64,000 nucleotides of DNA. It comes from Escherichia coli. GTDB taxonomy: Bacteria; Pseudomonadota; Gammaproteobacteria; Enterobacterales; Enterobacteriaceae. This document shows, in pieces, positions 23,103-45,574 of this stretch. The position numbers and the translations under genes are program-made. The DNA lies in assembly GCF_051903065.1 (NCBI RefSeq), contig NZ_CP178438.1; one strand, given 5' to 3'. The notes below the pieces were generated by a model that worked only from the letters and a program-made list of their open reading frames with translations, searched no databases and had not been told where the DNA came from. Numbering within the stretch: position 1 is the stretch's first letter; the number at the start of each line of letters is the position of its first letter.

Positions 23103-24407
23103 ATGAAAGCGATCTTGATCCCATTTTTATCTCTTCTGATACCGTTAACCCCGCAATCTACATTCGCTCAGAGTGAGCCAGAGCCGGAGCTGAAGCTGGA
23201 AAGTGTGGTGATTGTCAGTCGTCATGGTGTGCGTGCCCCAACCAAGGCCACGCAACTGATGCAGGATGTCACCCCAGACGCATGGCCAACCTGGCCGGTA
23301 AAACTGGGTTGGCTGACACCGCGCGGTGGTGAGCTAATCGCTTATCTCGGACATTACCAACGCCAGCGTCTGGTAGCCGACGGATTGCTGACGAAAAAGG
23401 GCTGCCCGCAGCCTGGTCAGGTCGCGATTATTGCTGATGTCGACGAGCGTACCCGTAAAACAGGCGAAGCCTTCGCCGCCGGGCTGGCACCTGACTGTGC
23501 AATAACCGTACATACCCAGGCAGATACGTCCAGTCCCGATCCGTTATTTAATCCTCTAAAAACTGGCGTTTGCCAACTGGATAACGCGAACGTGACTGAC
23601 GCGATCCTCAGCAGGGCAGGAGGGTCAATTGCTGACTTTACCGGGCATCGGCAAACGGCGTTTCGCGAACTGGAACGGGTGCTTAATTTTCCGCAATCAA
23701 ACTTGTGCCTTAACCGTGAGAAACAGGACGAAAGCTGTTCATTAACGCAGGCATTACCATCGGAACTCAAGGTGAGCGCCGACAATGTCTCATTAACCGG
23801 TGCGGTAAGCCTCGCATCAATGCTGACGGAGATATTTCTCCTGCAACAGGCACAGGGAATGCCGGAGCCGGGGTGGGGAAGGATCACTGATTCACACCAG
23901 TGGAACACGTTGCTAAGTTTGCATAACGCGCAATTTTATTTACTACAACGCACGCCAGAGGTTGCCCGCAGCCGCGCCACCCCGTTGTTGGATTTGATCA
24001 TGACAGCGTTGACGCCCCATCCACCGCAAAAACAGGCGTATGGTGTGACATTACCCACTTCAGTGCTGTTTATCGCCGGACACGATACTAATCTGGCAAA
24101 TCTCGGCGGCGCACTGGAGCTCAACTGGACGCTTCCAGGTCAGCCGGATAACACGCCGCCAGGTGGTGAACTGGTGTTTGAACGCTGGCGTCGGCTAAGC
24201 GATAACAGCCAGTGGATTCAGGTTTCGCTGGTCTTCCAGACTTTACAGCAGATGCGTGATAAAACGCCGCTGTCATTAAATACGCCGCCCGGAGCGGTGA
24301 AACTGACCCTGGCAGGATGTGAAGAGCGAAATGCGCAGGGCATGTGTTCGTTGGCCGGTTTTACGCAAATCGTGAATGAAGCACGCATACCGGCGTGCAG
24401 TTTGTAA
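23103..24407 (+). CDS. appA: Periplasmic pH 2.5 acid phosphatase / phytase (histidine acid phosphatase, RHGVRAP motif)
   Basis: ORF MKAILIPFLSLLIPLTPQSTFAQSEPEPELKLESVVIVSRHGVRAPTK...; start trimmed to ATG 23103. Confidence 0.95.
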   Translation: MKAILIPFLSLLIPLTPQSTFAQSEPEPELKLESVVIVSRHGVRAPTKATQLMQDVTPDAWPTWPVKLGWLTPRGGELIAYLGHYQRQRLVADGLLTKKGCPQPGQVAIIADVDERTRKTGEAFAAGLAPDCAITVHTQADTSSPDPLFNPLKTGVCQLDNANVTDAILSRAGGSIADFTGHRQTAFRELERVLNFPQSNLCLNREKQDESCSLTQALPSELKVSADNVSLTGAVSLASMLTEIFLLQQAQGMPEPGWGRITDSHQWNTLLSLHNAQFYLLQRTPEVARSRATPLLDLIMTALTPHPPQKQAYGVTLPTSVLFIAGHDTNLANLGGALELNWTLPGQPDNTPPGGELVFERWRRLSDNSQWIQVSLVFQTLQQMRDKTPLSLNTPPGAVKLTLAGCEERNAQGMCSLAGFTQIVNEARIPACSL

Positions 24408-28345: not shown

Positions 28346-30442
28346 TTATTGTCCAACCGGTACTTCTCGCTCTGCCGTCATTGGATAGAGCTGGTATTTG
28401 CGTGACAGCATTTGTCCACCATCACGCGTCAATGGTGTCCACGAAACCACCGCGCGGTTGCGGTTAGGTCCAATGGTCATCAAGTCGAACGGAATCGAGA
28501 TATAAAAACCTTTACTAAAGCCGCCTTCGCCGTAGTCATCTTTAGATACGTTACTGATTGCCGCCCATACCCCTACCGCCACGCCGCTGTCAAAGCGTTT
28601 GGCGACGTCGATCGTTGCGCCTTTATCTTTTGCCAGATATTGCCCAACGCTAAGTTTCATCAGTACGCCATTGAGCGTCGGCGGGTTCCAGTAAGCCGTC
28701 ACGAAACCTGTGGGCGTGGAATAATCGGTGAAGCGCATCATGTTGTCCCAGTCACGTTGCTTCACGTAGTTAACGTCCACACCCAGCGCCCAGCTGGCAT
28801 CTAGCGGGCGATAAAGCAGCTCGGAACCGACACCGGCGTACATCGTTTCCAGATAACCGCCATACACCTGGCCATAGAAACCATTGCCTAAGTCGGCAAA
28901 GTAGTTCGCCTGCAAGTTGTTGAGATAAACGTCATTGCGAACGTAATCACGGATATGCGTGCGCACGCGGGGCAGGGTAGAGTCCGCGGGCAACAGTGAA
29001 GACTTAAACTTGTCGTAGTTGTTGTAAATATTGGTGAAAATACCGCCATCAAGCAGCAGGTGGTCGGTAAACCAGTAGCGGGCGCTGGACATCAGCCCCA
29101 GCTGGAACATATAGAAATCTTCCGGGCCGCCCAGCGACTGTGAAAGTGTTGGGTTGAAAGAGTAGCTAAAGCGATCTTCACGAATACGGTAGCCCCGACC
29201 AAAGGCAGAAAGATCTTCAGCTTCAACACGTTGTTGTTGCAGTGGCTCTGATTGACCAGGCGCTGTACCTGCCAGCTGTTTGCGCAGGCTGGCTACGTCG
29301 GTTTCGGTAGTCACCATCGCCATATGCTCGCGCTTTTGCGTCACGCTAATCTTCTCAACGCCTTGCGGCAGGTTATTCACCAGAATCCGGTTGGCACGAT
29401 CGACCGCTTCACGAGAGTCACGGTATTTGTATTGCTGACCAGACATATACAGCGTCTTATCGCGTAGCTGAATTTCTGGCGCGTCAAAGCCCGCGTTATA
29501 CTTCAGGGCGGTAAGTTGGTTTGCTACCGTGGTGTACTGCAATCCTTCAGATTCAGGCGCAGGTTGATATGCCGGTTTTGGCGTATCGCGCAGGGCAGGG
29601 CGCAGATCGTTGAAATTGGTCCGTAAAGTGAAACCAAACATCAACGTGTTACCGCGTTCATAACTCAGGTTGAGGTCTGCCCAGCTGGCAGCGCGATAAA
29701 CTGCACCGACGTTGAAATGGCTTGCCTGAGGCAGTTTGCCAGCGAAATCATTCTGGTAATTGTTGCCGTCGTATTCGAGTTTCAGACGCAGGGGATTCCA
29801 CGGCGTTTGATACTCAATGCCGCCAAAGATGGAGGCTGGGCCACGAAAGATATCGCTAAAGCTGATATCGCCCGCATCGTGAGACTCTGCGCGATGACAA
29901 TATTTATCGCTCACCCGGCAAAACGGGTTGGTAATATTGCCCGCATTACCGGCGTAGCCCCATGCCATCCCGAGGGTGAAATCAAATGGCCCCGCTTGCT
30001 TGCTGGCCACCAGATACTCACTGTCAAACCGACCCGTACCAGCAATATCACGTTTACCAAACGCCACTTGCGGTAGCCAGTAACCTTCTTCCCACAGGCG
30101 AAGTTTAAAATCGAATGATTTGTCTTTGTATGACTGATCGCCGCTGAAATCTTCCCACTGGCTATATTTGCGTGTGCGCACATCCGTATAACGAATGGTG
30201 CCTTCCAGCCATGGGAACAGCGCCACGGACGTGGAGTAGAAACGGTACTGATCGTTATCCCGGTAGTTGACGCTGAATTCACCTTCCGGTGCGATGCGCG
30301 CATTTGGCATCTGCAACAATCCTGTACCGCCAAAGTCCGATTGCGACGAACCCAGCGGATCCGGGTAGGTTAATACTTCAGCATGACAGGCACTGGAGAC
30401 GGCAATGGCCAGGCAGCTTAAAAGATAAGAATTCTTCTTCAT
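28346..30442 (-). CDS. gfcD: Group 4 capsule outer-membrane protein GfcD
   Basis: 698-aa ORF with signal peptide, conserved operon position. Confidence 0.9.
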
Positions 30443-32241: not shown

Positions 32242-32681
32242 AACTTTTCCTTTATTCATCGCATGGACAATACGTACGCTTGAGATCAGGATTGTCTACT
32301 TTGAGTATAACATCCTTGTGAAATCTCCCTTTCCTCATACCACTTGCACTATATACAGCGGGTGAGAAAGGCGCGCAGAGGGAAATATAAGATTGTTAAC
32401 GATTTCCCTCTGGAAATACGACTTGTAGGCATAAGATAAATCTTAGAAAAATACAAATTAAAGATAAAAAATTGTTAAGAAAGCTATTAACTATTGTTGG
32501 TGATATAGTTTCAAGTGGTACTATAACTGGCTGTTAAGTGGCATTTATAACTATTAGTTGCAGAGATATTCGGTTAAATGGATTAGTTTCCTGGTAAAAA
32601 AGTAACTTGCGTTCTAATGCATGGTGTTGACTATTGAACTATTCCAATAAAACCAGTCAGCTTTAAACAAGCAGCGTCATA

Positions 32682-32894: not shown

Positions 32895-33180
32895 ACAAAT
32901 TCCTTACTGAAAATACTGCGCTGCACTATACGGGGTTAATAAAATAAAGCCAGCGATATTTAAGACCGCCGGACGGCTAAAATAAAATTTGCTTAATCTC
33001 AATTATCATGCGTTAATAGCTGCGTCGGTTTGAAAGACAGACAGCATACAAAGTAGTTTACTAAAGCAGTTCTCATTATCAGGCATTATCCCCTTCTTTT
33101 GAGTCTCTCTCCTGAACACTAAGTAGTTTCTGTATTAAAGCCCTGTTTGCCGAAAGGCCCAACAATGAAGGAAGTAAAAT

Positions 33181-44148: not shown

Positions 44149-44678
44149 TGAACTGCACCCCAAATGTTGGACATAATCTGACATCTGAAGGTGCAGTTTA
44201 TGAAACATTCATTTGAAGTAAAACTTGCCGCTGTAAATCATTACCTGGCCGGTCATGCAGGCATCATTTCTACGGCAAAACTCTTTCAACTTTCTCACAC
44301 CAGCCTCTCACACTGGATTAATCTTTTTCTTCTTCACGGTCCTCAGGCACTGGATTGCAGACACAAGCGTAGCTATTCTCCTGAAGATAAACTTTGCGTG
44401 GTTCTTTATGCTCTCGGGCATTCTGAGTCTCTACCCCGGGTAGCTGCCCGGTTTAACATTCCCAGCCACAACATGGTTAAAAACTGGATAAAAGGCTACC
44501 GCAAATCTGGTAATGAGGCCTTTATCAGGCGCAGGAAGGAGAAAAGCATGACCCGTTCTGATGATACCCATGAAAACGAGGCAAACATGACGCCGGAAGA
44601 GATGAAGAATGAGCTGCGTTATCTTCGCGCAGAAAATGCATATCTGAAAGCCATGCAGGAGCATCTCCTGGAAAAAAA

Positions 44679-45574
<896 letters not shown>

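Follow-up and report, generated by a model that had tools for sequence, protein, structure and literature searches.

The appA gene in the 64,000-nucleotide stretch of Escherichia coli DNA analysed here (the window) carries two copies of a hexanucleotide encoding Glu-Pro near the start of the mature protein, where the K-12 gene has one. This two-unit tract is very probably a slippage-derived, most likely neutral length variant of a coding microsatellite in appA. From position 23169 to 23192 the window reads CAG AGT GAG CCA GAG CCG GAG CTG, translated QSEPEPEL, and the precursor of 434 residues (ORF 23103-24407) starts with MKAILIPFLSLLIPLTPQSTFA followed by QSEPEPELKLESVV, with QSEPEPELKLESVVIVSRHGVRAP after MKAILIPFLSLLIPLTPQSTFA. 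The appA gene of K-12 MG1655 (1299 nt, 432 residues) reads GAGCCGGAGCTG, translated QSEPELK; at the tract itself, GAGCCA GAGCCG GAG of the window (QSEPEPELK) stands against GAGCCG GAG CTG of K-12 (QSEPELK). The first-pass annotation had proposed a 6-bp gain relative to K-12 that adds Pro-Glu at the start of mature AppA. The comparison of GAGCCA GAGCCG GAG with GAGCCG GAG confirms this gain and the lengths given for the two proteins, 434 and 432 residues, and the K-12 sequence it gave is right, QSEPELK being found in both MG1655 appA and PDB entry 1DKL. The repeat does lie inside the interval that had been assigned to it (23146-23190), but this interval also includes the end of the signal peptide, the repeat proper occupying 23175-23189 (Table 1).

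Table 1. Features of appA in the window, with positions counted from the first nucleotide of the window.
Feature	Position	Strand	Remarks
appA CDS	23103..24407	+	434 codons plus stop; predicted periplasmic acid phosphatase/phytase
Signal peptide, codons 1-22 (MKAILIPFLSLLIPLTPQSTFA)	23103..23168	+	cleavage expected between 23168 and 23169
Codon 20, ACA (Thr)	23160..23162	+	GCA (Ala) in K-12 and O157:H7; position -3 of the cleavage site
Tract (GAGCCR)2 GAG, encoding E-P-E-P-E	23175..23189	+	2.5 units; ancestral state 1.5
Unit 1, GAGCCA (Glu-Pro)	23175..23180	+	synonymous A versus GAGCCG of O157:H7
Unit 2, GAGCCG (Glu-Pro)	23181..23186	+	same sequence as the only unit of K-12
Partial unit GAG (Glu)	23187..23189	+	with the next C, direct repeat GAGC..GAGC; putative slippage-seeding role in the one-unit allele
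RHGVRAP, catalytic nucleophile motif	23220..23240	+	precursor residues 40-46, intact, 10 residues downstream of the tract
HDT, proton-donor motif	24081..24089	+	residues 327-329, intact

The tract is within the coding sequence, 72 nt beyond the start codon. As a pattern within a single sequence it is not beyond chance: its 2.5 units are below any single-sequence threshold, Tandem Repeats Finder reported no repeat in the window at a score of at least 30, and loci with at least eight of nine matches at a lag of six number 13 in the window versus 4.7 ± 1.8 in shuffles. The extra 6 bp are recognized as an indel because of the comparison with other alleles, not because of the repeat pattern. In an alignment, the extra unit fits either unit position, and the indel can be placed anywhere in mature residues +3 to +7.

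The appA gene and its surroundings

By every criterion applied (family score, motifs, cysteines and gene order) the predicted protein can be identified as AppA without ambiguity. Its score against the NCBIfam equivalog NF007552 is 839.5 bits (cutoff 585) with residues 1-434 covered, its match to the crystal structures of E. coli phytase (PDB 1DKL/7Z1J) has an E-value of ~1e-276, and its gene has 100% identity to appA as annotated in strain ECNB21-M121 (WP_047624059.1). The gene order appC-appB-cbdX-appA-etk is the same in the window and in annotated genomes. The roles of the RHGVRAP and HDT motifs have been described, and the catalytic histidine is mature residue 17 in AppA (PMC9181005). RHGVRAP does not vary among 15 orthologues, and eight of eight cysteines are kept in the window protein (residues 101, 132, 157, 202, 212, 406, 415, and 432). 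In AppA, the eight cysteines form four disulfides. Judged from its translation, the AppA of the window is a normal, intact phytase.

The C-terminus of AppA (window 24390-24407; L004:1590-1611) is dimorphic and ends in either ...RIPACSL or ...C[AST]L[HY]QDK. The former, followed by etk, occurs in K-12, O157, the window, and E. albertii; the latter, in proteins of 436 residues, is found in four divergent Escherichia lineages and in the B2 strains Nissle and PBP8. In the two B2 genomes that are annotated, the 3' end of appA is overlapped by cspH, with no etk behind it. At least in B2, the end of appA may have been reshaped when the etk-gfc region was gained or lost.

On a larger scale, positions 1-50834 of the window are collinear with ECNB21-M121 at 99.97-100% identity, and positions 50500-64000 are 100% identical to 23CRST027 and 23CRST031. 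The window is without the IS903B and ISKpn26 copies of ECNB21-M121 (in the gfcA-cspG interval) and without its prophage beside wrbA, and it keeps an IS1397 copy between cbpM and torD; the sites of these differences and of IS1397 are at 32586-32594, 32977-32980, 50834, and about 44200-45548. The gfcD gene (28346-30442, minus strand) is an intact ORF of 698 codons in the window; the annotation of the otherwise near-identical genome of ECNB21-M121 lists it as a pseudogene with an internal stop.

Distribution, copy number and ancestry of the tract

The search set comprised 5,426 complete E. coli genomes, which were compared with an 86-nt query centred on the tract; matches of at least 95% identity, a value impossible with a 6-nt gap, were taken as two-unit. 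With the window sequence as query, 338 genomes reached this identity, including one partial match to the five-unit allele of strain CEC13091, and the two-unit genomes thus number about 337 (~6%). Longer queries gave similar figures, with 338 genomes in the 6-nt-gap identity band of a three-unit query and 337 in the 12-nt-gap band of a four-unit query. About 5,080 of the 5,419 genomes with appA are not two-unit, and most genomes have one unit. The top-ranked two-unit genomes are overwhelmingly O157:H7, in which appA is annotated with 1305 nt and 434 residues (WP_001301957.1), and all O157:H7 genomes listed have the two-unit allele. The exact allele of the window (WP_047624059.1, 1305 nt) was found in three genomes, ECNB21-M121, 23CRST027 and 23CRST031. 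EPEPE is thus already contained in reference alleles, which the first-pass annotation had named as evidence against its reading; going by these database matches, the two-unit form is a common RefSeq allele that had already been catalogued and is not specific to the window.

These recurrences also leave a negligible probability that the second unit is an artefact of sequencing or assembly. Some platforms do miscall short repeats, but the change consists of one clean in-frame 6-bp unit, the same 1305-nt allele was found in three complete genomes of independent origin, and two units occur in several hundred. On account of these repeated finds the artefact reading was rejected, and length differences of 6n bp at the tract should not be read as errors or lesions.

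Some E. coli genomes (hits H220 and H225-H238) had two to three separate megablast places for appA, with five to six places on plasmids. These additional places could be extra or partial copies of appA.

Longer tracts were found in three genomes. Three units are present in two of them, the O157 strain AR-0427 (GAGCCG three times) and the river isolate D8 (GAGCCA GAGCCA GAGCCG), and five GAGCCG units in one, CEC13091 (QSEPEPEPEPEPELK, 440 residues). The unit counts observed are thus 1, 2, 3, and 5, with identical flanks, and all alleles examined, including those with three and five units, are full-length ORFs. Outside the tract, the alleles of AR-0427 and CEC13091 differ from the two-unit O157:H7 allele by no and one substitution, respectively, so that both are recent expansions by whole units. 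The tract of D8 corresponds to the interrupted tract of the window type with its GAGCCA unit duplicated again. No four-unit genome stood at the top of the four-unit search, which enumerates weakly because two-piece alignments to one-unit alleles ranked first; ranked BLAST lists could hide four-unit alleles with at least three mismatches in flanks or units, and alleles with at least six units. The three- and five-unit alleles on near-identical backgrounds show a tract that changes in whole 6-bp steps. Its head-to-tail copies, whole-unit steps and recurrence on near-identical backgrounds are those of a small coding variable-number repeat, as which we classify it from the alleles compared.

Outgroup sequences were recovered among the species representatives of the genome collection with a degenerate DNA pattern for VVIVSRHGVRAPTK. 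This pattern retrieved appA from E. albertii, E. whittamii, Escherichia sp. E1V33, and the divergent 'E. coli' SCPM-O-B-8794 and E69, and also homologues from Kosakonia and Edwardsiella. The short length is found in all five non-coli or divergent Escherichia lineages, which read NEPELK, GAPELK, SESELK, or SEPELK, and the divergent B2 allele (Nissle 1917) has one unit. Since the five outgroups and the B2 allele are short, one unit is the ancestral state and the extra 6 bp are a derived insertion.

The long alleles fall within a family of close appA alleles that are 4-12 substitutions apart and in which unit number and similarity do not go together. The allele closest to that of the window is the one-unit allele of the baboon isolate A30, at four substitutions, and the two-unit O157:H7 allele is nine away; the two-unit allele of Combat11I9 is closest to a one-unit O145 allele, at six substitutions. 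It would accordingly be conceivable that some tracts in this family have contracted, given that slippage can remove units as well as add them and that one-unit alleles lie so near to two-unit ones. A long ancestral form, from which K-12 and most E. coli lost one unit by deletion, is nevertheless extremely unlikely in view of the short form of all five outgroup lineages and the divergent B2 allele, and of the great majority of appA genomes that are not two-unit. The outgroups thus led to the rejection of a deletion in K-12 at the species level, although single tracts of the allele family may have reverted from two units to one.

The interleaving of one- and two-unit alleles among near-identical appA genes points either to recurrent gain and loss by slippage or to intragenic recombination. 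According to the latter explanation, the two-unit state had a single origin and came into the allele of the window by recombination and not by independent slippage, a scenario that we consider possible but rather doubtful. The variable sites form mosaic patterns among alleles that differ at very few positions, and the window combines Thr20 (ACA), as in the one-unit A30 and O145 alleles, with the unit number of O157:H7. However, the informative sites are too few to demonstrate recombination, and independent expansions do occur, both from two to three and from two to five units on O157 backgrounds and in the GAGCCA duplication of D8. With the clear expansions from two to three and from two to five units, recurrent slippage alone is sufficient to explain the distribution. 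The first unit of the window ends in CCA and the second in CCG; the duplication was thus followed by a synonymous substitution or by recombination.

Two observations concern appA-like sequences outside Escherichia. A 317-bp contig of Nocardioides antri (NZ_VUJW01000157.1; L015:1-317) carries appA of the E. coli K-12 type (EPELKLESVVIVSRHGVRAPTK...) and is almost certainly E. coli contamination of the assembly. The appA-like gene of Edwardsiella piscicida (L019:10821-10844) contains (CCGCTG)4, encoding PLPLPLPL, inside the signal peptide, and E. ictaluri and E. anguillarum have PLPL at this site; this is a second N-terminal hexanucleotide length polymorphism in an AppA homologue.

Proposed slippage mechanism and consequences for the protein

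In the ancestral Escherichia state, mature AppA would have started with QSEPELK and had one unit, GAGCCG GAG, in a tract three codons past the cleavage site. The one-unit sequence GAGCCGGAGC has a 4-nt direct repeat, GAGC, spaced 6 nt, which could serve as a minimal substrate for slipped-strand mispairing. Replication slippage between the GAGC-CG-GAGC repeats would then have added a second unit in one appA allele family (the O157:H7 lineage and the window), with QSEPEPELK and a precursor of 434 residues as the result, and in the lineage of the window the first unit would afterwards have gained a synonymous G-to-A change (CCG to CCA). A perfect two-unit tract probably slips more readily, with occasional growth to three or five units, and the GAGCCA interruption should damp further slippage. 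An in-frame gain of the slippage type just past the signal-peptide cleavage site, as had been suggested in the first-pass annotation, is supported by the short outgroups and by the alleles that differ in whole 6-bp steps.

The signal peptide of AppA comprises residues 1-22 (PMC9181005; PMC4726635), and the mature AppA chains in the PDB (1DKL, 410 residues) begin at Q23 with QSEPELK. Cleavage after residue 22 would be expected in the allele of the window as well. The 6-bp indel does not alter positions -3 to +3 of the cleavage site, and Thr20 is a separate substitution.

With this substitution, the signal-peptidase site reads T-F-A before Q in the window versus A-F-A before Q in K-12 and O157:H7. 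Threonine at position -3 is of a residue class that the -3/-1 rule allows. The ACA codon for Thr20 is common to the alleles of O145 RM12367-C1 and baboon A30 and is absent from most two-unit alleles.

In the AlphaFold2 model of the window protein, which is of moderate quality (mean pLDDT 77.7, from an alignment of 15 orthologues), residues 1-25 have a pLDDT below 50 and the first beta-strand starts at L30, directly after the tract. The extra Pro-Glu would thus lengthen the coil before the strand that leads into RHGVRAP, and the low confidence of this tail hints weakly at flexibility. From the intact RHGVRAP and HDT motifs, the eight intact cysteines, and the low-confidence coil before strand 1 we infer that the additional Pro-Glu is most likely a selectively neutral length polymorphism.

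The early mature region influences Sec export, and the first 12 mature residues have a net charge of -3 with the insertion versus -2 without it. The extra Pro-Glu could be adaptive by altering the activity of AppA, its signal-peptide processing, the efficiency of its Sec export, or its stability in the periplasm, and could have been selected in lineages related to O157:H7, where the two-unit allele is fixed in the genomes listed. This is very unlikely, however, as an allele can become fixed in a clonal lineage without selection, the indel does not touch the cleavage-site positions, the tract is situated in the low-confidence coil, and lengths of three and five units are tolerated as full-length ORFs, as would be the case for an unconstrained spacer. 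We give very little credence to the more far-reaching proposal that (Glu-Pro)n constitutes a tunable N-terminal spacer for export, processing, or stability, with expansions favoured in O157:H7-related lineages and a CCA interruption that stabilizes the preferred length. The importance of the length variant is very small; in practice, the residue numbers of the mature protein rise by 2 compared with those used for K-12 and in the PDB, and the catalytic His17 becomes His19.

Comparison with reference alleles and known repeat loci

The appA gene of K-12 is the same gene at the same locus as that of the window, from which it is 18 nucleotide substitutions and the 6-bp gap apart. Both proteins share the 22-residue signal peptide, RHGVRAP, HDT, and the eight cysteines, whereas the AppA of the window has two additional residues at mature positions 4-7 (EPEPE versus EPE) and six substitutions (A20T, A97T, S104P, K204N, K300M, and E398A, in the precursor numbering of the window). 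The AppA of O157:H7 (WP_001301957.1) has a two-unit tract and the same length of 434 residues as the window protein, and the two genes share 99.3% nucleotide identity. Its two units are identical (GAGCCG), in contrast to GAGCCA GAGCCG in the window, and four amino acids differ (T20A, T63N, T301I, and A398E, from the window to O157:H7).

With phase-variable contingency loci the tract has in common that it is a short repeat close to the 5' end of a gene whose product is exported, and that it mutates by slippage. Unlike these loci, however, it causes no frameshift and no on/off switching, because its unit length is a multiple of three, and all its alleles examined are full-length. Phase variation was rejected as a reading of the tract, since the 6-bp unit lies in frame inside the ORF and every length variant gives a full-length AppA.

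In-frame 6-bp VNTRs are known from coding regions of E. coli, for example among the loci used for MLVA typing of O157:H7. No evidence for use of the appA tract as a typing locus was found, searches with N-terminal peptide strings returned no papers on the polymorphism, and a literature search on appA, VNTR and O157 was uninformative, 'appA' having matched 'apparent'. The tract differs from MLVA-type loci in its very low copy number (1-5) and in the low frequency of variants, about three in roughly 340 genomes with a long allele. It could serve as a minor lineage marker of low resolution that occasionally expands inside O157, and it resembles MLVA-type VNTRs in its in-frame 6-bp unit, in its whole-unit changes, and in varying within the clonal O157 lineage.
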